Positions 1 to 51,932 of a DNA stretch of 64,000 bases are shown here, in pieces. Within the stretch, counting starts at the first letter, position 1. The number at the start of each line of letters is the position of its first letter. Source of the DNA: Saccostrea cucullata (lineage: Eukaryota); NCBI RefSeq assembly GCF_032062105.1, contig NW_026936832.1, positions 1 to 64,000 on the forward strand. The letters run 5' to 3'. Position numbers and translations under genes: made by a program. Below the pieces are notes generated by a model. It searched no databases. It saw nothing but the letters and a program-made list of their open reading frames with translations, and was not told where the DNA came from.

Positions 1-1332
1 TCCTGTTTCTACACACTCCCACAACGCGGGCTACATCTGCTTGTAGAATCAAGTCCGCCAACCCAGGGGGAATCCCCTGAGCTACAACCCAATGCGGATT
101 TCCTAACTCCGAGAGGGGCTCCTCTCGGAAACCATACGCTACGCACCCACCCATCAGTTCCACTCTCACATCAACTGGACGATGGTCTGCGAGCAACAAC
201 TCCTCCACTGACTGTACCTCACCCCCCGGGATCCTCCGGGGAAACCACAGGCAGTCTACAACTTGAATAAGTGGTATCGTGGTATCCGCTGACCAGGATG
301 GTCGCGGGGCTCCTCCGCTGGCGCCTTCCTCCGGCGGAACAACAACAACAACTGGTGGTGGATGCGGACTCTCCGCCACCACCGTCGTGGTCAACAACTC
401 CCGGGAGCTCGGAAGGCTGTCCGGTACTAAGACCACTCCGCTGCTAACCATGGCCTCGGGTAAGAGCTCGTCCTCCCAGGATTCCGCTATGTTAGAGCGG
501 GATCGTTCCAAACAGTTCCAAGTCCCCATTATATCGGCACCGTTTAACATAATAGCTATTACCAGGGGGTGTATGAACATGGCTACATGGGGTAACTCCC
601 CCATCCGCACCCTGCGGATTTCCGACTCGAGGGGCGGCACAATACCCAGATGGGCAGAGAAACGGATCATCAAGTCCCTCACACTACCGGAAAACCCCCA
701 CTCGACTTTTCCCATCCGCCGGACCACCCACTGGCGGAGATGACCCAGCAACCCAAAGTCGCTGGTACCCTCAGGGGACACCCTGAGCAAACGAGCTAAC
801 TGTAGGAGAAAATCCATGAACACTTGGGGGTCGTCTAACCCCTAGTGTGGTACTCCCAAATGTGAGCCAACATCGGGGTTGCCCCCGAGAACTTCATTCC
901 ACAAGCGTGGACTGCACATCTGCGGGTACCTCTGGCTCTGATACGGCGGGCTCCCGCCCCCTCCGCACCTGCGGGTATCAACCTTAATCTAGCACTAGAT
1001 TACAACCCCGCACGCCCGACTCCCTGGGGTCGGGGTATGCTGGCCTCCTGCGATCTCGCAGGCTCCTGCCCTCCAAGACTCATCTCTACCATCTCCGCCC
1101 AAGATGGTCCAGGGTGAACAGGCTGTCCTCGCCCAGCTGGCGGCAACGGGGGTGCTGCATCTGGAATCCCCGTGATAATCCCTCGACCTCTGGGCGCTCC
1201 GAGGTTCTCTTCCGGCGCTTCAGCATCACTCGCCGGTGCGGCCACTTCCGAGTCCGCGTCACTGCGTTCCCGCATCTCTTCCTCGGCGGAGCTTCCGCCC
1301 TCAAAGACAAACTCATCAACTTCCTTGGACAT
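1..1332 (-). pseudogene. Extra ORF3 of the Gypsy element: acidic N-terminus, C2H2 zinc finger (847-918), then a long open frame (838 to <1) ending in a putative TatD-like domain
   Basis: Manual translation: ATG at 1332, in-frame TAA at 1000, then CAVHACGMKFSGATPMLAHIWEYH. After a 1-nt frameshift at ~840 there are ~279 stop-free codons up to the window edge. Confidence 0.7.
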
Positions 1333-1476
1333 CACTTATGAACCTACAAAGACAGGTAAGATTATCAAACCTATGTCTAACTTACTAATTCATGTACAAG
1401 TCTACTCTAACCTGATGTAAACCCAACTGAGACTAGCACATGCTTCCGCATCATTGCGGAAATCTAACTGCTCTAA

Positions 1477-3476
1477 CTAGCCAGTGTCGACTCCGACGGG
1501 ACTACATTCGGGGCATATATATTGAGGTATCGACTTGGCATAGTCCTCACTTATACCTACGCACCCCGGATGGAACCAGTCCCGACAGTCGTCGCACTGC
1601 ACCATCATCCCCTTGGGATTAGACTGTAAGCAAACACAATATTTCTTGGCTCTAGTCCCCCTAGTGGCTCTAGGTTTCTTGGGTGCTTGGGGTTGTCTTG
1701 ATTGATCTAATCTTTCCCTAACCCGTTTACGAGTACCCATATACGGACCTACTGACTCCGCTGGTTTGGGGCTAACCTTTGAGTGACCCCCACTCCCCGG
1801 GCTCTCAGGACTTAATCCTGAATCTGCGGTCCCTAGCGGTGTTACCACGTCATGTGCAAGGGAACTATCCCCATCTCGGGCTACTGACTGTCCGGGCAAC
1901 TTATTCTTGTAGTTTATTAACCATTTAGGGAGTTGCCTGGACTCGCATCTTTTAAGCTTGTCATGGTGCATGACCTTGACCTCGCGCCGAGATTTTACAA
2001 CAAATATTGTGTCTGATTTGGTTTCTATTATTATCCCAGGACCCCTCCATACTGACTCTACCTTTTTTCCCGCATTGCGGCGCCAGTAGACCAAATCTCC
2101 GACCTTGAACTTACTGGTACGGACCTTAATGTCATGCGACCTTTTCATTGCCTTTTGCGCGACTTTTAGTTTTCCGCGGGCAATGTCGTGCGCTCTCTGA
2201 ACATTGTCTTCTAGATCACGTACATACTTGTCCACCTCACCCTCCTCCCCATTTTGAAAAGACGTGGAAGGCGGTGGGGCGAACATCAAGGTTGCTGGTA
2301 TATTTACTTCTCTACCCAGCATGAGACGATTCGGGGTATACCCAGTATGGCGGTTTACCGCGGACCGCAACGCTCCAGCCAATGGGCCTAAGTACTTATC
2401 CCATGACTTGGGCTGGCCATCTACGTAGCAACGAACCGCGTCCATTAGAGTGCGGTTATAGCGCTCTACCTGGCCATTCCCTGACGGACGGTAGGGTGTG
2501 GTCCTGGCCTTATGTATCCCTAACATGGCACAAATCTTACAGAACAGCTCACTCTCGAAGTTACGGCCCTGATCTGTAAAGATTTCGTAAGGATAGCCAA
2601 ATCGAGAAAAGAAGTCATTGATAGCAGAATTTTAGCGGTGACTTCCGCTGTCTGAGACGGAAGCGGAATACACTCTACCCACTTGGTAAAGCTATCTACC
2701 ATCATAAGGATGTATTCATTCCCGCTATCAGTTCGGGGAAGCGGCCCGAGAAAGTCTAAATGTACCCTCTCCATCGGGCTTCCCGCTTGGTAGCTCTTAA
2801 GCTCGGACCTGTTCGGCAACGAACCTCTCTTATTCCGGGCACATACGTTGCAAGTCTTGACATATAACTTTATGTCCTTTGTCATCCGCCACCAGTAGAA
2901 CTGTTGTTTAAGGCGTTCTTTAGTTCTCTGGATTCCCTGGTGACCAGAGGACGGTATGTCGTGACATAAGTGCATGATCTCGGATCTGAGACTCCGCGGC
3001 ACTAGGAGCCGACGGGGCGCATCCGAGTCATCCGGTTCTCGCCAAACAACTCCTGTCTCGTCGAGATAAAAACAGTCTCTCTCCAGAAGATAACACTTCT
3101 CTTCCGGACTACAGATAATTAAGTCACTTTCGGTAGGCAAGTCCCCAGACTCTAAGTACTGTCTAAGATATACCATAGTCTCGTCATTTTTCTGTGTCTG
3201 GGCTAGGTCTGCGGAACTGTATGAGGATAGCGAAATTCCCGCAGTATCACCTGTTACCTGACAGACTTGAGGACTAACTGTCTCAATCTTGGGATTTAAA
3301 CTCGACACCCCACTGACATTAATCTGGAAACTGGGTAGTGCAGAAGCACTTACAGTCGAGGGAGTATCTTCCCAAGAACTAGAAACAATGTCCTGACGAA
3401 GGGTGGGATCTAATGAACCACAACTACCCCCTTCGGCGGACTGACTCTCCGCTGGCACAGGCGTCTCGTCAAAGAG
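1477..3476 (-). pseudogene. pol: pol: integrase (HHCC + DDE core) with C-terminal PHD finger; frameshift near 2600
   Basis: HD...GHQG...CNVC zinc domain; core motifs RVHLDFLGPLP and NGQVERYNRTL; ends with KYCVC...MVQCDDCRDWFHPGC...YICPEC. Confidence 0.92.
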
Positions 3477-4400
3477 TTAGGACAAAGGAATTACATCGTC
3501 TATTTCAGTGTTAAAGTCATGCCAGCGCTCGTGGGCTCGGCGGCAATAACGGCATCCGCCGCAGGGCAAGTCTTCGACCCTAATTCTCGTCGAGTACCCC
3601 TGGCATGAATCAGGTATGTCCCGGGACAGAGCGTCAGCATTCACATGCTTCTTTCCCGGGCGGTGTACGATCCGCATGTTGTACTGGCTCAGTTTCTCGA
3701 GCCATCGAGCAATCTGGTTCTGCGGATGCTTGAAATTCATCAGCCAGACCAGGCTATGATGATCGGTCCTGACTGTGAACTCACAACCCAGCAGGTAATG
3801 GCGGAATTGTCTGGTAAACTTACTTACCGCCAATAGCTCTTTACGAGTAGTACAGTACCTGCGCTGCTCTGCGGACAGCACAGCACTCCCATACCCTATT
3901 GTTCTCTCTTTCCCACCCTGGACTTGGCTTAATTCCCCGCCTACGGCATAATCCGAGGCGTCAGTGTCCAGGATGAACTGACCTGTACTGTTCGGTATGG
4001 CTAGAACTGGAGGATGAGTCATTAACTGAATGAGTTCCTGAAAAGCACTCTGCTGCTCTTCACCCCACCGGAAACCACTTTTTCCGGTAACCGCATACAG
4101 CGGAGCCGCAATTCTGGAGAAGTGGGGGATAAAACTGCGGTGATAATTGGCGAAGCCAAGAAAGCGCTCTACGCCCTTAACATCACATGGAACTGGCCAG
4201 TCACGCACTGACTCAATGTATTGATCCCCCATCTCAACTCCGTGCTCGCTCACGGTTCTACCAAGGAACTCGACCTTAGTCTTAAACAGCTCGCATTTCC
4301 GAGGCTTGAATTTAAGGCCATATGCTCGGAACCGCTCAAACACTTGTCGTAGGTTATCAAGGTGAGCGTGTGCTGTAGATCCTAAGACTAGGATATCATC
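3477..4400 (-). pseudogene. pol: pol: RT C-terminus and RNase H
   Basis: Motifs FLGFANYHRSFI, LDTDASDYAVGGEL, KELLAV, TDHHSL and HVNADALSR; in frame after the 4401 stop. Confidence 0.93.
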
Positions 4401-7400
4401 TTAGAAACCTAAGGCCATCTTCCAGTTGAGTCTGTGTAACACCAAATTTATGGCCCTAGCAAAGGTCGCGGGGGCATTACACAGACCAAACCCTATTCTA
4501 GTGAATTCAAATAAGCCATATTTTGTAATAAAGGCAGTCTTTTTCCGGTCTTCCGGAGCTATCTTAACCTGCCAGTAAGCCGCATTAGCGTCAAGTTTGG
4601 AAAACCAGCGGTTTCCCGCTAGCGTGTCCATGCACTCCTCAATGAGTGGCAGAGGGTACGTGTCCTTGACTGTCACCTTATTAAGGGCTCTATAATCCAC
4701 GCACCAACGGACGCTGCCATCCTTCTTCCGGACCAGCACTGGGGCAGACGCCCAGTCTGAGGAAGATGGCTGGATGACTCCGGCTTTCAACATCTTATCT
4801 AGATGACCCTCTTCCTCCCCTTGAAAAACAGCGGGGGTGCGTCGCATCCGCTGCTTGACAGGAGACGCATTTCCGGTGTCTATTCGGTGTTCGATCTCGG
4901 AAAAACTTCCGAGATCAAGGTCATCAGTGGCAAAGACGTCGGCAAACTTTTTGACTAGCTCCGCTGCCTCGGATCTGACTTCCACAGGCGCGGTCTTATT
5001 TAACTGCTCTAAGAGTGGGGCAATATGATCATAGGTCTTATCCCCCTCAAAGCTTACACGACGCACTGTGGGCTTAGTGTCATTTACTAGATCGGCAGGG
5101 ACTGCTTTCCCCACCTTAGTACCTGTCTTAACAATATGACTACGGTCTGTCATGTTTAAAATACACAGCTTGGCTCTATTTCCTGCAGTGTTGTATGTCC
5201 GCGAAGCTACTATACCAGGCGGAAATATGCTGGCTGGCTCCAGCATAAACTCTGGCATATCGGAACTAAGGGTACTCTCGATGATCTGAGCAGTGTGCGG
5301 GGGAATCCGCACTCTGCGGACTGAAACCGCATCGAGTACTGGTACTGACTCATCAACACTCATAGCAAATATAGTGTCAATGCCCTTGACCCTCAAAGTA
5401 CCGGCTTCACATGAAATCTCTACACCATGCTTACGTAGGAAATCTATTCCTAAGAGCATTTCATCCTGCAGAGAACCAACATACATCGGGTGAGCAAAAT
5501 CATAATCCCCGATGCGTAAATTAAGACAACCGAGGTACTGAGCGGTCATACCAGCTCCCTCGCCAGCCAACCTAACATTAGGGTCACTTAAAACTTCGGG
5601 CTGCGGCCTCAAAGATTTATTAACTTCACTAGATATTATTGATATGTCGGCTGCGGTATCGATTGTTGCTCGCACCTGTTGGCCTCCAATCTGTATCGGA
5701 ATACGCCAAGCCCCCGAACCAATGACCTGACTACCGGACCTGACTGATGGAATAACATAGGTCGCGTTTACCTTCGGCTCAGAGAACTTGATTTTAGTCT
5801 CATGTTTTGATGCGCGATGTCTGTCTTCATCCTCGCTACTTGTATACTTAAGGCAAGGTTTAGGGGACCCCGATCTACGCCGTCGCTGGCGGATCGGGCA
5901 ATCGCGTAACAAGTGTCCTGGCTCTTGACACTCAAAGCATATAATGGGTTTCGTCGCGCGAGAGCGGCCCCTACCCGGTGACGGATCCCTCGAGGATCCT
6001 CGCTCGGGACTTGATCTTCGGGTGCGGTCCTCCGAGTCACTGGAGTAATGTTTCTTACCTGCATCCCAATCCGGTGACTCGGAGCGGTCCCTACTAGCGC
6101 GGCGATCAGAACGGTCTCTGCTGGCACGGCGAGGACGGTCCTCGCTGGCACGATGAAGACGGTCTCTGCTGGCACGATCTGGGGAACGGTCGTCGCTGGC
6201 ACGATAAGGACGGTCCCTGCTGGCACGATTAGGGCGGTCCCTCGATTCTGAGCGTTTTCTGCGTGCCACGTAAAAATCTTGGCACTCAGAGTCTGACCTG
6301 GCGCGATAAAAACCTGAACCTGGCGACTGACTTCGGTCTCTGGAAAGCGATCTAACTGCCCTCGGCCGGCGGGCTAAAGCTCTACGGCTAAGTTGATACG
6401 TCTTAACCCTCTTAATTGCCTCCTCGAGAGTCCCCGGGGGATTATTAATCAACTGCTGCCCCGCCTCGCCGTCATTACACCCAAGAGCAAAACGAACGAT
6501 GATTTGCTCCTGGAAAACCTCTGGCGAGGTGCCGCCACCGAACGCTTTCTGGGCAGTGTCCATTACTCTGTCCCCCCATTGCTCGATAGCTTCGTCCGCT
6601 CGCTGGCAGATCGAATTAAATTCCAGCTGTGAGGCGGCTCTAAGGGAAGTTTTACCGAATCGCTCCTCCATCCGGAGAACGACCTCACGGAAACTTAACA
6701 GCGCGCCTCGTCGCCTGAGGATGTCAAAGTACTTAAGGGCTGCCCCCTCTAACGTAAGACTTAGGGCAAACAGAGAGTCGGGATCGCTCCACTGATGGTA
6801 CTCGGCAATGGTAGAAAACTTCGAGTAAAATGGACCCCATTCTACATCCCCGTTATATCTCACCCCTTTTACCTCGGCCGGAATATTTCTACTGACACAG
6901 CTACGGGTACCCGCGGGAAGTAAGCTAGGCAATAGGCTCTGATACGCGGTGGTCATTAGCGAATGACTCTGTCCTGCATTATGCAGACCCCCCTGACTGG
7001 GCATAAACGACGGACTACCCCCTAATGCAACTGACTCCCCAACCAACCTACCATAGTGGCCAGCGCCCTGACCACTCGAGTTAGCAACACTAGGATGCGC
7101 GGACGCTACGGGCATTGTCGCGGAAGTACCCACTCGGGTGCACCATGCAACCTGACCCGGAACCGGTGGGCCCGTGCTGGGAAGCACTGGGTAATCGGTC
7201 CCCCCTGACGCGAAAGAACCCAAAGTAATAGTACTCGGCAATCCCGAGACTAAACTGTCATTGCCAAGTGAGGATAGGGAATGACCCTGAGACATTTGTA
7301 CACTAGGTCCCCCCACAGAGACAGGCATATACCCCCCGCTATGTGCGGTCACTACAGGGTTACTTACAGGCATCTGATGTCCGGGTAGTGCGCTAGGGAC

Positions 7401-8143
7401 CCAAGGACTCCCCTGGCTACTAGTCACTACTGGCTGACTGACCCTTTTATCCTGCATGGGCGGGGGTGACTGGGGCTGACTGGTCTTCATTAACCCAGCC
7501 AACATCTGAGTAATATTACCCAACTGGCCCCCCATACTTGTCTCCATGGCACCTATGTTAGATCCCATCGACCCCAGCTGTTTAGACACACTGGTCCCCA
7601 GGGCATCTATCTCGGACCCCATAGTCCCCAGCTGTTTTGACACATTGGTCCCCAGGGCATCTATCTCGGACCCCATAGTCCCCAACTGCTGTGACACATT
7701 GGCCCCCAGGTATCTATGTCCCCTCCCAGGGCCCCCATATCCTGACCTAGGGTATCCACCCTCTTATTAACAGTGTCCATTTCCCCCTGGATCCGGTCTA
7801 CCGCTCCCTCCAGGATCTGTTGACGTTCCTGGAGGAGGGAATAAAAAGCGGACCATCCGGGTGTTTCCCCTGGACCCTCCGAAATAGCTCCCTGTGTGAG
7901 TGACATGTCCCCCTCCCCATACTGAGTGACATTATCCGGGGCACTCCCCCCCTGGGGCACAGGTGTACTAGCAACACCAAGGGCAAACTTCACACTCTTT
8001 GTAGGCGGGACTTTCCCTGGGCTGCACTCTAACGGGGCACCTAATAGATCACTCCGGTCTCCCCCCACCGAACGAGCGTACCAACCCCCCTCGGGTCTCA
8101 AAGCCCCCCTACCAAGACCGAACGAGCTAACCTCTCGGTCCAT
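4401..8143 (-). pseudogene. gag-pol: gag-protease-RT (N-terminal part of the polyprotein); frameshift near 7708 and premature stop at 4401
   Basis: Zinc knuckle CFECQEPGHLLRDC; aspartic protease DTAADISI; RT motifs WASAPVLVRKKDGSVRWCVDYR and LDANAAYWQ. The catalytic motif reads F*DD. ORFs 7661-8200 and 4401-7697 join through a 1-nt deletion inside an 18-codon repeat. Confidence 0.92.
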
Positions 8144-8367
8144 AACACCGGTCCTCAGATCACGCAAAAGTACACTAAACTTTATTAAAAATACATACAA
8201 ATCTCTCGCGGCTAATCCGCTAAGAGTAAATAAAACAATAAACTAAAAACACAAAGGCTTTAACCCTATACAGTTACATAATAAAATACAAAAGTTACAA
8301 AAATCCAAGATGGCGACGGCACTAACGCACTTGGTTAGGCCGGCACCCCGCTGCCAAGACAATAAAA

Positions 8368-8385
8368 CCCTGGATCACAGCGCCA
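8368..8385 (-). promoter_or_regulatory. Primer-binding site TGGCGCTGTGATCCAGGG (possibly tRNA-Ser)
   Basis: Begins with TGG (complement of tRNA CCA) 1 nt after the LTR end. The first 11 nt are complementary to a ...UCACAGCG-CCA tRNA end; the tRNA identity is recalled, not searched. Confidence 0.75.
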
Positions 8386-8386
8386 A

Positions 8387-8654
8387 TATAGTATTTCCTG
8401 TATCTACATAATAAGACTGTGATGGCGGAATAAACAGGCAAATACTATGATATAAAAGTCCGCACTTTATTGCGTTAGTGGTCGCCAATAATATGTGACA
8501 ATTACACAATGACTTACAGAGAATCAAGTAACACGTCCTGTCGGGTCGACAATCAGCATAGAAGAGAGAGTGTATTACGTCATCCGCATCATTGCTGGAC
8601 ACGTGATCGGAGGCTACCGGGGAATTCGTCCCCGGCTCCTCCAGGACCACCACA
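8387..8654 (-). repeat. Putative 5' LTR (~268 bp) of the Gypsy element
   Basis: Minus strand starts TGTGGTGG at 8654 and ends TACTATA (expected ...CA) immediately before the PBS. Base composition changes to AT-rich DNA beyond 8654. The partner LTR is not in the window. Confidence 0.7.
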
Positions 8655-41645: not shown

Positions 41646-43934
41646 ATTACAGTAGAAAGATTCATGTCCATCTATTCTTTTTTCAATGTTGCTCTTATTA
41701 AGAAGTGACTTTGAAAGTGTTCCAGATTGTTCACATTCTAAAGCATGCTCATGGAAACGCCGTTATCACCAGTCCCCATAAAATGGAGCTTCAGTAAGTG
41801 CCGCATCAGGCATTTTACTGTTGCAAAAATGACCATATGATGATCAGATCTACAAGAAGTTAAGTTTTTAAAAATGTGTTTAAAATATTTTGTTAAAAAG
41901 TTACATTAAAAAATTTTAAAAAGAGCATTTAAGCATTTAATTCTGTCTAAACGATTCCATTTGAATTATTTCCATTACTATAAACAAAATGCAGCTTTTC
42001 CACATGTATAGATGCATGGTGCAGTCTTTATAGAGAAAAAGGTCAATATCAATTAGCTTTTTATATAAGGTTCGCTACTCTTTACAAAAGCAATAAGCAG
42101 TAAATTTGGAGAGCAAAAAAATTGTTTGAATCACACAGTTCAAATTTAAGTTCCGGAGATACCTGAATGAAATTAAATATTTGATTTGTTTAACTTCAAA
42201 TCAAATCCTGTTCATGAGATTCCATAAATTCTGTACTCTTTATTTCAAAATGATAAATTTCTATAAAGAACTCTAAGTGGTATATTGCATATATTTGCCC
42301 CCACAAAAGTCAAATTTTGAAAACTTCCTGAAATGTGCTGAATTCAATAAATTGTATGGGAAATATAAATTAACAGAAAATATTGTAGTGTCAAAGCAGT
42401 GTATTAACAATTTTTGTTTTTATGATGTCACAAAGTAGTCCGATTTTATATCCTTTTTTCAGAAAGAGGACAAAATGGACAAAATTTCAACAGTTTTAGC
42501 TTTAAAATTTATAGAGCGCAAGTTTGTTCAGGAACAATATTGACATATTTCATTGATATTATCATTCTACACATTATATCAAAATATTGATCCTGAACAC
42601 ACATGCGCTCGGTGACTTTTACTCAAAATATCGACGAAATATGTACATTTTTCTGTAAAATTCATAAAAAACTGAAATTTACGTCATGTTTGTAACGTCA
42701 TTACGTACATACAGCGTCATTACTTAAGAAAATATTCAGTGCTTTGAAGTCAGCATATACTCCCCTGTTTAAGTACTTAATTAAATATATCTCCATCAAA
42801 GTTTGATTTGGGTGGCAATAATGGTTATTACCGAATAAAGTTCTTTTCTAGATATTTAATCAAAATATATTCTGTGATGATGCAATTGTAACAACTCTGA
42901 TATAAATTGTACATGTACTTGTCTGATAAGCTTCCTTGCAGAATTCTTTAGAAAAGGCTTTTTTGACTTATTTTGTACACAAACTGTGTTCCATACATTT
43001 TTTGTTCCTGTATAAATTCCAAAACTACTGGGGTATAAATGTCCATCAGGTGTTTACTAATAAAATGAAAGTAAACACATTCACATTTAGGAATTCCACA
43101 TACAATATTGTGAATACAAACAGCGTTCCATACTGAATGGTAATTGCAACCATTATATATGTGTAGATGATATTTGGCCGGTGTGGAAGTCAATACTTCA
43201 CTTCTTTGGGAAAAAAAATATATAATTTTTTTGATTTAGTTTTGATTGCATAACAAACTACAGGTTAAAATAACAACCTTTAATGCTAATTGGCTATTGT
43301 TTTCAGGCTGTCTGTCATAGAAAGCTCATATAGAAAAAGTACGGTGTGCAAATGGGTAATTCTAAATTCATATTCATCCCTAATTTTAATCTTTCGATTT
43401 CCCAACTTTCCCCTGAGTGAATTTTTCTAAACTTTTTATATGTGAGTTACTAATAACTTATCTATAAATCTGCATTAAAATATATACTGTTGCAATTAGT
43501 TCTCATTTTTCAGTAGAATGACTAGACTACTAGTTAAAATAGCTTTATGTTATCTTGAAGAGTATGTCCATCGCTATTCACCTCGGAATTTTTGTGATCA
43601 TGTGACCCTCTAAAGTCACGTGGGCTCCGATTTTAGGTCAACAAATGAAATGTTAAATTTAACCAAAAAGTTCAAGGGCAAGGCAAACAAACAAAAAACT
43701 TTACAGTGCTTTAAATTGTCCCTATGTATCTATACTTTCGCAAAAGTGATGCTCATTCAGTTGGTTTTCCGATACATTTAAGTTATTCACCTAAAACAGT
43801 CAGTAGTATATCAAAAATATTTTTAAAAAGTTGCAAACCTCTCAAAATAACTATTCTTTACACAGAACTTTTACATCTCTGAGGAGATAATATAATCAAG
43901 CATGGAAACAATTAAAATCAAATTTTTATTCATC

Positions 43935-46161
43935 TCTTGCTGATAAAGTCAGTGATAGTACTAACAATACAAAAAAGTTCTGGCGAAATTTTGACAATTA
44001 TAAAATTAAACAGCATGAAAGCACTTCAGCTATTAAAATGGAGGATTGGGTGAATCATTTTTCAACATTACTAACATCCAAAGAAGATAATCCTTTTGGA
44101 AGTTACTTAGATAATACCTATTTAGATGAGAAATCGCCCTTAGATTTCCCTTTCACCTGTAAAGAAGTAAAGATAGGAATTAAAAATTTAAAAAATGGAA
44201 AAAGTTGTGGACCTGACTTAATTTTGAATGAGTTTATAAAAACAAGTTCTAATATTCTCCTTCCAACATTGGTAAAAGTATCTAATAAAATTCTTAATAC
44301 TGGTAAGATACCACAAGCATGGAATCAGTCATTTATTATGGTTCTTCATGAATCAGGTGATCCAAATAATTGTAACAATTACAGGGGTTTGAGTGTAAAT
44401 AGTTGTTTAGGAAAATTATTTAGTGGACTACTGCAAACAAGATTGTCAGATTATCTAGAAAGTAATTCTCTTCTAAGCCCTTTCCAGTCTGGCTTTAGAA
44501 AGCAGCGTCGTACAACTGATAATATATTTGTTTTAAAAACATTAATTAACAAATATGTTTTCTGCAAAAAAACAGAATTATATGCTTGCTTTGTTGATTT
44601 TAAAAAAGCATTCGATACTGTGTGGAGACCTGGTCTTCTTCATAAGCTTTTAAATAAAGGTATTGGAGGTAATTTCTATAGAATTATTGAACATGTATAT
44701 TCTACTACTGTGTGTGCTGTTAAACAATCAAATGTTCATACTGATTTTTTTCCTACAAATCGTGGAGTAAAACAGGGAGATAATTTGAGTCCAACACTTT
44801 TTAACATTTTTATTGATGATTTTACAAAATATTTAGATTCTTCGAAAACATGCCCTGTTCAATTGAACGACATTAACTCTAACAGCTTATTTTTTGCAGA
44901 TGATTTATTACTTGTATCTGAATCAGTAGATGGGCTACAACAATGTCTTGATTCACTGGAAAGATATTGTTGTGAATGGAAGCTAGAAGTAAATACACAA
45001 AAAACTAATGCTATGGTATTTTCTAGTAAAAAACTTAAAAAACTGAGTTGTAAAACAATGAAGTTTAAAGAAGATGTTATTGATTTTGTTGATGAATATA
45101 TGCATGCGAGAATTTAGCAGGTAGAGCAAGGAAAGCATATTTTATGATCAAATCAAAACTACCAAACAATGTTAGTCTCTCAGGAAAGGTTCAGCTTAAG
45201 ATATATGAATCATGCATTATACCAATTTTAACTTATGCTTCTGAAATATGGATAAGTGATTTTAAGAATATTACAAAAGACTTTGATAAAACTCCATTTG
45301 AAAAAATTCAAAATTTCATCTTGAAAGACATTTTAGGGGCCCATAATAAAGCTTCTAATTTAGCAGTTAGAGTAGAGTTTGGTGCACTTCCCATTATTTT
45401 CAGAGTTTATAAATTATTATTTAGATATTATTATAGATTTAAAAAACTTGTTGCAGATCAAGAGAATTCAAACTTACTTTTACAACATGCATATTTAGAG
45501 GATGAAAAACTTGCAGGAAGTGGGAAAACATGTTGGCATAACTGTATACAAACTATACTTGATGAAGTTATTGGTTCAAATGCTAATACATTATCAATAA
45601 ATGATTTTGAAAATAATTTGAAAAAATATTTTGAGAACATAGTTTTTAAGGATATAATAAATATCAGAGAAAAGGGTAATGGCAAATTATCATTCTACAG
45701 CCAGTTAATAAGTCAAGGGAATCTAAACAAACTTGAAATTCAACCATACTTAAATTTTTCCATTTCCAAGAATCTTCGTTCTTTTTTGACTCTATTGAGA
45801 ATAAGTGCTCACAAATTACAGGTAGAGGTTGGCAGATAATGTAACCCAATTATACCAAGAGATGAAAGATTTTGTATTAATTGTAAAAATGTCGTTGAAG
45901 ATGAACATAATTTTTTATTTGTATGTCCTCTATAAAAACAACTAAGAAGTGAATTTTGTACACTTTTTAATAAAACCTGTATATCTTATGAAATTTTTAA
46001 TCCAGCAGATGTTAATTCTACAAGGAATATTTGTAAATTCATACGTGATGCGTGTAATATAAGAAAATCTATGTGACTATATATTTTATATTTGTTTACT
46101 GTATGTATGACTTGCGCCACATGTGGTTTTTGTCAAATTGAATAAATAAATAAATAAATAA
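43935..46161 (+). mobile_element. 5'-truncated non-LTR retrotransposon (RTE-X-like) nested in the hAT element
   Basis: RT motifs NYRGL, FVDFKKAFD, GVKQGDNLSPTLF and FADD; C-terminal RISAHKL.VEVGR...C..C...EDEH...C; (AATA)n tail at 46140-46161. Confidence 0.88.
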
Positions 46162-49460: not shown

Positions 49461-51932
49461 ATGGGGAAACGCAAACTTTTAGATTCTGACTCCAGTCAGT
49501 CTAAAATTCAGAAATTGTCCATGTTTGGCTTTACTTCCAATTCGGGGTCTGATCATTCAACCCCAGCCTTTCAAACTTCGCCAACAGTCCCAAGTCCAAA
49601 ACCTTCTACACCAAAACGTAAATTTAACGTCAGTTGGAAATTAAATAGGGACTGGTTAAGATATGATTCCAAATTGGGCATGATGTTTTGTGACATCTGT
49701 ATTTCGGCCAATGTACGAAATGTTTTTACTGAGGGTACAAGCATTATGAAGAAAGAAAACGTAGTCAAGCATGAGAAGGGAAAAGGTGCTTATCTTCTAA
49801 TAGTAAAATAAATTGTAATTTTTAAATAATAAAGATTTTTTTTAATTCTACATATATAATTTACCACAATTTTTAAAAGATTTTTTTCCCTATATTCTAC
49901 ATATATAATTTAGAATCAAAGGATAAATAAATAATTTAAAAAAAACAACAACACAATAAACCTTATTCGACGTAAAATACTAATTTTTTTCTTTTCTATT
50001 AATTAGGTGACAATAGTCACTCTGCAGCTCTACAAAAGTCCAAATCTGCTGAAAACATGGAAACTGTCAGACAAAATGCCCTCTCCAAGAGTAAATCTGC
50101 AATTATATCTGCCTTCGAAACACCTACTTTGCTGCATCAAATGACCTGCCCAATTCCATGGTTCCCAGACTAAACAATTTATGCATATCCCAGGTAGTAA
50201 TTAATTCCATCATCATTTTCTTTCAAAAATTAAAATTAAATTTGTATCAATCTGAATCTTAAATCAAAATCTATTTAAGGTCTACTTAAATAAAAAAAAA
50301 TAATTTTTTGTTTATTATTTTTAGGGTAGTTCTCAGCTTAAAGATCTCAATGTTGATTCCCATACAACATGTGAGAGTAACAGCAGTGTTCAGGAGTTTC
50401 AGCAGTCGTTGTCCGATGTGATTCTTGATAGGCTCGTAGATAGGGTTAGGGGTAGCTCTGTATTCATTGTAATGTTAGACGAGTCTACAGATGTCTCAGT
50501 TCACCAGAATCTCATAGTATATGTTAGGTTTTTAGAACAGATAGGTAGTAGGGTAGTTCCATCTGTAGACTTTCTAGGCATTAGGCAGTTGTCAGTTGCA
50601 AATGCAGAGGCAATTTCTTCAGAGTTGATAGGTTTGCTTAAGGATAAGGGATTAGACTTGGATAGGTTAGCTGGTGTTTCAACAGATGGGGCTTCTGTGA
50701 TGGTAGGGTGTAAGAGTGGAGTAGTTACTAGGCTTAGAGAAATGTATCCAGGTATCTTAGCAACCCATTGTATAGCACATAGGTTAGCACTTGCATGTGG
50801 GGAGGCAGCTGATAAGGTCACTTACTTAGTTAAGTTTCAGGCAGTTCTGAATGATTTGTATAAGTATTTTGAGAGATGTCCTAAGAACATGGCTAGGTTA
50901 GAGAAGGTTCAAGGAATCTTAGATTGTAGCAGGGGCACTAGGCTCAAGCAAGTTTCCCACACTAGGTGGTTAAGTTTTGAGGGTAGTGTTCAGGCAGTAG
51001 TAGACAATTATCAGAGTGTAGTTGCAGTCATGTTAGAGGAAAGTTCTGCTAAGGCATTAGCTCTCCACAAGCCCATTTCTTGTTACAAGTTTCTGTATGT
51101 TGCACACTTCTTAGCTGACGCTTTGAAGCCATTAGCTGTGTTGTCAAGGTCATATCAAAGGTCAGATCTAGATTTCACTGAGGTCAATTGCCTTCTGCAT
51201 TCAACTGTCAAGGTCTTGGACAATTTGATTAGCAACCCTGGTGGTAACTTGTCTGCCTTTCTGCAGCATGTTCCATCTGAGCCAACTCTTGATGAATCAG
51301 GTCTTTACACATTTGAGTTTCAAGGTCACATAGTAAGGGATAGTCTAGTACAAAGGTCAGAGGCAGTTAGGGCATGTAGCACTTTTATAGAGGGTGTTAA
51401 GGCTAGTTTGCAGTCTAGGTTTACTGATAGGGGTGATGCTTTGGTTTTGTCAGCTTTGAGTAGGTTTTTTGATCCTCAGACAGTTGTTGATAGGACTCCT
51501 CCTTCTGAGGACATAGATATCATAGCAAACCATCTTTCAGTATGTAAGGTAGCCAAGGTCAGAGATTGTAAGGATGAGTTACGGAATTTTGTAGAGTTCT
51601 GCAGGGCTAAGGTAGACTCAAATTCTAGGGTAGGGTCTAGCAGCTTAGATATTTGTCAGGTAGCATTTAGGGCTAGGGCAATGTTTCCCATCGTGGCAGC
51701 TGCTGCTGAACGCCTGCTCACTGCTCCTGTCAGCACTGCAGACTGTGAACGAGGTTTCAGCCGGCAGAACCTAATCAAGACCGATGTGAGAAACTCCCAG
51801 TAAATTTCCACACTTGAAAACCTTATGAGACTTTCCATCTCCAGCAAATCAGAGGAAATGGACTATGAGGAAGCCTTCCAAAAATGGAGTCGCACCAAAT
51901 CCAGGAGGATTTTCTCTGTGAACTTTCAGTGA
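49461..51932 (+). pseudogene. hAT transposase (TTF-type zinc finger, ZNF862-like), three exons: 49461-49785, 50007-50193, 50325-51932
   Basis: F..SW...RDWL.Y....MFCDIC; LDESTD; STDGASVMVG; HCIAHRLAL; TRWLS; CERGFS. GT-AG introns with compatible phases; 1-nt frameshift at ~50116 and TAA at 51801. Confidence 0.88.

Follow-up and report, generated by a model that had tools for sequence, protein, structure and literature searches.

At one end of a contig of the oyster Saccostrea cucullata (NCBI RefSeq assembly GCF_032062105.1, contig NW_026936832.1), a broken reading frame follows the pol gene of an LTR retrotransposon in the env position. The original prediction read this frame as a C2H2 zinc finger fused to a divergent TatD-like domain with replaced metal-binding histidines, and hence as a possibly dead nuclease that would be an unusual accessory module. 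This raises the questions of what kind of gene it is, whether the loss of histidines reflects the decay of one copy or a property of a family, and what the protein could do for the element. The window analysed here is the whole stretch of 64,000 nucleotides from position 1 of the contig.

A Ty3/gypsy element with a third gene at the contig end

The minus-strand copy in the window is a Ty3/gypsy-type LTR retrotransposon with ORF3 at its contig-end side (Table 1). According to Pfam matches on the window frames, gag and then protease, reverse transcriptase (RT), RNase H and integrase lie upstream of ORF3 on the same strand, and it is this domain set that places the element in the Ty3/gypsy type. 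The integrase ends in a PHD finger, as had been proposed. The window copy is a dead element, its gag-pol being interrupted by stops at 4403-4401 and 3479-3477 and by a frame change near 2630; in two other copies, gag-pol is a single frame of about 2,200 codons.

Base 1 of the window is the contig end, and the 3' LTR of this copy lies beyond it. What is left of the third gene (1332-1, minus strand) is its broken 5' two-thirds. The predicted details of this part are all present in the sequence: the ATG with an acidic N-terminus, the TAA, the finger C-x4-C-x3-F-x5-M-x2-H-x4-H, and just behind it a frame change, followed by 280 codons without a stop (841 to base 2) that contain the quoted motifs. 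We take the spacing of the two cysteines and two histidines to be that of a C2H2 finger.

Table 1. Coordinates of the retrotransposon and its third gene in the window, in the direction of transcription
Feature	Position	Strand	Remark
5' LTR	8387..8654	-	268 bases, TG...TA; matches paired LTRs of other copies
Primer-binding-site-like sequence (putative)	8368..8386	-	directly behind 5' LTR
gag-pol	1477..8242	-	Pfam and ORF list
gag CCHC knuckle	5939-5898	-	within gag-pol
Protease	about 5660	-	within gag-pol
RT	4793-4251	-	Pfam on window frames
RNase H	3977-3621	-	Pfam on window frames
Integrase zinc finger and core	2972-2308	-	Pfam on window frames
PHD finger at integrase C-terminus	1504..1644	-	PF00628, E 1.7e-10
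Splice-acceptor-like pyrimidine tract ending in AG (putative)	1344..1360	-	11 bases before ORF3 ATG
ORF3 acidic N-terminal tail, predicted disordered	921..1332	-	pLDDT under 50; N/S 0.24
In-frame stop TAA, codon 111 of ORF3	1002-1000	-	window copy
C2H2-type zinc finger	847..918	-	C139, C144, H157, H162 of intact protein
Helical domain packed with finger	461..846	-	pLDDT 88.6, pTM 0.82; frame change at its start in window copy
Low-confidence linker	272..460	-	
First third of TatD TIM barrel	1..271	-	cut by contig end
DCLWF replacing HxH	259-242	-	window barrel
GIPP replacing GxHP	88-65	-	window barrel

Further into the window, an ORF run at 15366-24092, mostly on the minus strand, looks like a Polinton/Maverick-type element. 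Its integrase (23493-24092) has a weak Pfam match (E 0.002), and presumably, by resemblance, 17588-18103 is protease-like and 18277-19098 capsid-like. Remnants of two other reverse-transcriptase elements and of a hAT-type transposase are found at 33087-33974 (minus), 43891-45839 (plus) and 50325-51803 (plus).

Intact, broken and deleted copies of the family

A search of the genome's own DNA for this family gave at least 42 matches. Eighteen loci were taken with their flanks, and 15 distinct long copies were kept; two fragmentary loci (C11075 and C20934) were left out, and so was C10285, whose flanks show that it duplicates C10223. In 13 of the 15, the element is bounded by paired LTRs of about 265 bases that are 88-100% alike and have TG...TA ends, and 4-base target-site duplications are visible at family copies with LTR pairs. 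Together with a primer site and a purine tract, the family thus has the hallmarks of Ty3/gypsy elements, and whole elements measure about 10 kb. The copies with paired LTRs bear out the prediction that the third ORF lies within the element: in one intact copy, 147 bases separate the integrase stop from the start of ORF3, and another 424 bases lie between the end of ORF3 and the 3' LTR. ORF3 is conserved in the family, with an uninterrupted frame of 625-627 amino acids in four of the 15 other long copies; it is broken in the remaining 11 and in the window copy.

In fifteen further copies (15 of the 31 studied), ORF3 has lost an internal part by deletion, and the junctions fall into a few recurring types (with 3, 1, about 10 and 1 copies). 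An ATG could be located in 13 of these copies, and there the frame closes within 60 codons. LTR pairs were seen in nine of 12 examined, 91-100% alike (seven of them 97-100%), and the deleted copies have their own distinct flanks. Paired, similar LTRs and distinct flanks imply that copies without a working ORF3 transposed repeatedly. That such copies spread while the gene is under selection in others (see below) fits supply of the protein in trans, or a benefit that is conditional. In three deleted copies (L106, L110 and L117), an additional ATG near the ORF3 start, out of frame with the first, opens into what is left of the barrel, so that a truncated TatD protein could be made from it; the database protein P0124 has this truncated form.

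The splice-acceptor-like tract before the ORF3 start is kept in 27 of 28 family copies, and by eye a T-rich tract with an AG close before the start is also found in six of seven other families with a spacer. This suggests that ORF3 may be expressed from an env-like spliced message. Four of 24 RNA runs were aligned to one whole copy; reads were sparse (110-190 per run, both strands), and no splice joint to the ORF3 acceptor was found among them. A single joint in the raw reads (a skip of 880, three reads) was rejected as splicing, since a matching deletion is present at the DNA level. We also discarded the reading of the deletions as introns removed by splicing, the aligned joint having GT..AC ends.

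Fold of the ORF3 protein

The predicted TatD-like domain is a TatD barrel. All four intact copies match Pfam TatD_DNase (PF01026) with 51-56 bits against a cut-off of 27 (E about 1e-14), and no other Pfam model matches the intact proteins. The window part of ORF3 alone has no TatD match in Pfam because 181 residues lie beyond the contig end, among them the expected GExG-like motif: in other copies, GEIGLDY follows just past the edge. Searched by sequence against the PDB, the one intact protein tested finds E. coli TatD (E 4e-5). In a model built from a 25-row alignment, pLDDT is mostly 80-97 over residues 355-620, and the Foldseek top rows are YcfH, TATDN1, TatD and TATDN3 (E 4e-10 to 4e-9), bearing in mind that the alignment behind the model included other TatDs.

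Residues 130-290, folded alone from 46 sequences, give a confident model of a finger packed with a helical domain (Table 1). Two short strands and a helix carry the four finger ligands, and six helices follow; the finger part has a pLDDT of about 95, and its ligands are conserved in 90% or more of the aligned sequences. Conserved ligands and the two-strand-plus-helix fold of the model both speak for a C2H2-type finger, in line with the prediction, although no Pfam finger model matches it and no solved finger is among the fold matches. The finger/helical model has no match at E 0.001 in the Foldseek PDB and viral sets. A wide fold search reached at best Z 4.3 over 67 residues, below the tool's noise level, to small helical bundles of the peptidoglycan-binding type. 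In the Atlas, the finger/helical model falls among unnamed clusters (0.89-0.90); a weak lead points to zf-met, to which 11% of members belong at a score of 0.89. The finger/helical domain is thus without a clear structural match, from which novelty of the fold does not follow.

Active site and selection

The active site was read codon by codon in 31 copies, namely the window copy, the 15 long copies and the 15 deleted copies. All five metal-binding histidines are replaced throughout the family, as the prediction had it for the HxH and HP motifs in the window. The two histidines of HxH are Leu (L362) and Phe (F364) in 20 of 20 readable copies each. The GxHP histidine (E. coli H62) is Ser, Pro or Ala (S422) in 31 of 31, and the second-site histidines are Val or Ala (V484, E. 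coli H127; 27 of 27) and Arg (R519, E. coli H152; 26 of 28). In the two exceptions at R519, the codon is for His and differs from the usual one by a single change of the CpG type. Since the N-terminal motif reads L-W-F in 20 of 20 copies, it is not the HxH of Group II (TATDN2/3, YcfH), nor does DCLWF hold the (G/A)xN of Group I (TATDN1, E. coli TatD). Of the motifs that intact copies might have restored, GExGLD is present, as GEIGLD, but the HxH and HP histidines are not. The residues that replace the histidines show synonymous variation at L362, F364, S422, V484 and R519, and on the codons read, the loss of the histidines is a fixed property of the family and not a decay of the window copy.

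The three acids, in contrast to the histidines, are unchanged: E450 in 30 of 30, E568 in 28 of 28 and D570 in 28 of 28 readable copies (E. coli E91, E201 and D203). This invariance is unremarkable, since 113 of 259 barrel columns are invariant, among them 15 of 27 D/E columns. The nearest outside relative, P0001 (listed as Saccostrea echinata), has three of the histidine losses in common with this family, and two of its three acids are changed, with Asp in place of the bridging Glu and Asn in place of the Asp. Shared histidine losses and changed acids make catalysis look relaxed on the common branch. Loss of ligands recurs in other branches (L103, P0065, P0132, P0157). Within the same protein clade, P0065, from a 36-member cluster, and P0132, from Pinctada, represent separate lineages whose TatD barrels are poor in ligands.

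Selection was assessed by N/S, which counts types of variants close to saturation at synonymous sites and is not a likelihood model. For variants shared by at least two copies, N/S is 0.12-0.14 in the barrel, 0.10 in the finger/helical part (0.05-0.10 in the helical domain) and 0.24 in the tail, compared with 0.01-0.04 for RT, RNase H and integrase and 0.04-0.07 for the PHD finger. Singleton variants have a higher N/S than shared ones, as expected for changes after insertion. The barrel also has an N/S of 0.13 in the deleted copies, which was not counted as selection in those copies, as intact lineages have the same variants. Pairwise dN/dS among uninterrupted copies ranges over 0.018-0.097 in the barrel and 0.047-0.074 in the finger domain, and two young copies differ in the barrel by 17 synonymous changes and one non-synonymous change; dS to the sister family is saturated. 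By these counts, the His-less barrel is under purifying selection (N/S 0.02-0.14), and such low values indicate that the His-less protein is maintained. At synonymous sites, ORF3 is more diverse than pol (dS 0.52-1.4, compared with 0.25 for the integrase of one pair), which suggests that modules may have been exchanged by recombination.

TatD genes across the gypsy clade of the genome

A TatD profile matched at least 151 places in the genome, of which we examined 60 loci, 58 in order of score and two for their long frames. RT, RNase H or integrase lies upstream on the same strand at 40 of the 60; seven have only a protease or PHD remnant, and 13 none of these. Among the 13 are two TATDN3-like host genes and two loci cut by contig ends. 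LTR pairs are in view at seven representatives of other families, six of which enclose the TatD gene by position; one further locus has no LTR pair. The RT and TatD trees of 19 elements, all from families of the S. cucullata genome, recover the same main groups, and RT and TatD distances correlate across ten families (rho 0.75; 2 of 2,000 shuffles). Judging from this agreement, TatD is the standing third gene of the whole gypsy clade in this genome and has descended together with RT. The third-gene TatD of the prediction is therefore real but not peculiar to this element, where it is a derived form of a clade-wide gene.

The nearest sister family, L091, is at an RT distance of 0.18 from the His-less family and keeps all eight site residues. 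Its ORF equals database protein P0002 letter for letter; P0002, like P0124, which is tied to L110, was not counted as outside evidence. Named relatives come from Saccostrea, Crassostrea, Mytilus, Pinctada, Strongylocentrotus and Patiria and are known from protein entries, with their DNA context unseen; one Mytilus "tatD" protein includes an integrase zinc-finger domain. The site is complete in 119 of 137 tree rows, host and bacterial rows included, and in 75 of the 91 rows with all eight sites readable. The element TatDs appear to group with fish TATDN2 (FastTree support 1.0) in a tree that has long branches and includes two named TATDN2 rows but no TATDN1 from a eukaryote. The finger/helical domain was found in 147 of 328 proteins compared and is absent from the two fish TATDN2.

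Several loci depart from the common layout. The integrase PHD finger occurs in only one of the two main branches of the TatD clade (L057-L097 versus L047-L067). L065 has TatD and integrase in one frame of 1,079 codons without a spacer stop, and the Mytilus protein P0050 may have a similar single-frame arrangement. In copies of the L047-type family (L051, L069, L084, L089, L090 and L101), RT to integrase is deleted and TatD directly follows the protease. L103 (G000 C18394, minus strand) is an intronless frame of 1,102 amino acids that combines a degenerate TatD barrel with two repeats of the finger/helical domain; no pol was found within the 10 kb examined, and it is possibly a domesticated host gene. 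P0157 has the same doubled layout. L045 and L046 (G000 C14024, about 321-333 kb) are intronless TATDN3-like genes arranged in tandem together with fragments; their active site is complete, and pol is missing from their surroundings.

Discussion

The position of ORF3 inside the LTRs, its domain layout, its TatD identity and the spread of ORF3-disrupted copies are established. For the function, we propose, with a probability of roughly 0.45-0.47, that the ORF3 protein is a trans-acting, nucleic-acid-binding pseudo-nuclease that helps the element spread. An ancestor of the clade would have captured a TATDN2-like host nuclease. The protein would be made from a spliced subgenomic RNA, as env is, and would act in trans, so that deleted copies could borrow it. 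With both metal sites stripped, the barrel would bind rather than cut, its most likely ligands being RNA:DNA hybrids, R-loops or single-stranded DNA of the element. Binding could shield or chaperone the nucleic acids of the element, cDNA included, against host nucleases and silencing, while the finger/helical domain would direct the protein to its target or recruit a partner protein. In humans, TATDN2 is an R-loop-binding enzyme that degrades the RNA strand of these structures (PMC10711561), and medaka tatdn2 is required in primordial germ cells (PMC12709183), which would be the very cells in which such elements have to move. However, R-loop binding by TATDN2 was weak in the E593A mutant and absent in the isolated barrel (PMC10711561), so that a metal-poor barrel need not bind. 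We are doubtful about a wider version of the proposal, in which a bivalve-echinoderm gypsy clade made TATDN2 a trans-acting third gene and several lineages independently turned it into a metal-poor decoy that shields hybrids, with the finger/helical domain as its targeting part.

The main alternative, though on balance we think it unlikely, is that the protein is still an enzyme that works with its acids alone, either as a Mg2+-dependent 3' exonuclease or as an R-loop RNase, with neither zinc use nor AP-endonuclease activity. It would then clear hybrids at the element locus, or trim cDNA or integration intermediates. The three acids that it needs are invariant, and E. coli TatD loses activity in E91A, E201A and D203A and keeps it in H127A, H152A and H64A (PMC4176340). 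TATDN1 H77A lowers AP-endonuclease activity 10-fold and leaves the exonuclease unaffected; E112A alone hit both activities, and H149A and H174A were mild (PMC10085689). TATDN2, too, requires E593 and E705 for activity (PMC10711561). As the acids are kept and single histidine mutants are often active, the sequence does not prove a dead enzyme: of the "possibly dead nuclease", the replaced histidines stand, but deadness does not follow. The mutants cited are single, however, and here five histidines are gone together, one of them to Arg; moreover, E. coli H62A is significantly reduced (PMC4176340), the invariance of acids is weak evidence in so conserved a barrel, and P0001 has altered two of them.

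The finger/helical domain could instead be the working part, acting on a host silencing or chromatin protein, with the barrel as a scaffold or protein-binding surface. We consider this rather improbable. The domain is a hallmark of the clade that fish TATDN2 lacks, folds confidently, is as constrained as the barrel, and is doubled in L103 and P0157, both of which have degenerate barrels. Yet most clade members keep a complete site, which makes nuclease chemistry the ancestral state, and no structural match points to a partner.

That ORF3 is a decaying passenger without function is very improbable and largely refuted by the N/S counts, which are far below 1 between subfamilies. The many deleted copies that still spread, the broken frames in most long copies and the sparse transcripts would all suit it, but most copies are broken in pol too, and ORF3 has been kept alongside RT across deep splits. 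We give hardly any credence to an env equivalent for cell entry or exit, which has the env position and the acceptor-like site before the ATG in its favor, as the modelled protein is a soluble TIM barrel and a hydropathy scan and the model revealed no N-terminal hydrophobic stretch, signal peptide, membrane anchor or N-glycosylation sequon, the only hydrophobic window (1.78) sitting inside the barrel.

Several points count against the pseudo-nuclease reading: the barrel is not basic overall (26 K/R versus 29 D/E), the RNA reads are sparse and on both strands, and the spread of deleted copies would equally suit a gene of conditional use. With many young families, a pair of a His-complete sister and a His-less family, and natural ORF3-disrupted copies, the role of the gene can be tested with purified proteins. 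The findings tie a host germ-cell R-loop nuclease to transposon biology and add a confidently folded domain without a clear match. They also bear on annotation: most of the examined loci among the at least 151 TatD matches are retrotransposon genes, and databases label relatives as host "tatD", "TATDN2" or uncharacterised.

Comparison with known systems

To our knowledge, there are few cases of enzyme-type third ORFs in LTR elements, and none with a tested role. Among the papers listed, a title and abstract search, with Repbase, Dfam and most subscription journals outside its reach, found none on TatD in LTR retrotransposons, and "TatD" is absent from the main texts of PMC5408684, PMC6238403 and PMC13524379 and from the supplements of the last. 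Within that scope, what is new is a bivalve TatD clade in one genome, its co-descent with RT, the folded finger/helical domain, the deleted sublineages, and a conserved His-less TatD variant beside an intact sister family.

With the TatD family (E. coli TatD, YcfH and YjjV; TATDN1/2/3), ORF3 shares the TIM barrel, GExGLD, E-S-D-S-P and the three acids. It differs in having neither HxH nor (G/A)xN, in the replaced GxHP and second-site histidines, and in being an intronless gene inside a retrotransposon with an extra N-terminal domain. TATDN2, with which the element TatDs appear to group, has a long and partly disordered N-terminal extension like ORF3, but it keeps all ligands and lacks the finger/helical domain. 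Maelstrom and EXD1, described in PMC5408684 as inactive nuclease derivatives that bind RNA in the piRNA pathway, offer a model of how ORF3 might work; they are host silencing factors with a DEDD fold and are not homologous to it.

The closest parallel in arrangement is provided by the Juno and Vesta LTR elements of bdelloid rotifers, which likewise have an enzyme-type ORF3 in the env position (PMC5408684); enzymatic third ORFs are also treated in PMC6338049. The ORF3 of Juno/Vesta is either a DEDDy exonuclease (3'-5', with its role untested) or a GDSL esterase, is family-specific with intact catalytic residues, and shows no clear departure from neutrality within the genome (PMC5408684). The oyster ORF3 does not have the DEDD/DEED motifs on a DnaQ-like fold. 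It is a TatD TIM barrel joined to a finger/helical domain, found clade-wide and diverging along with RT, under purifying selection, and in this family without its histidines.
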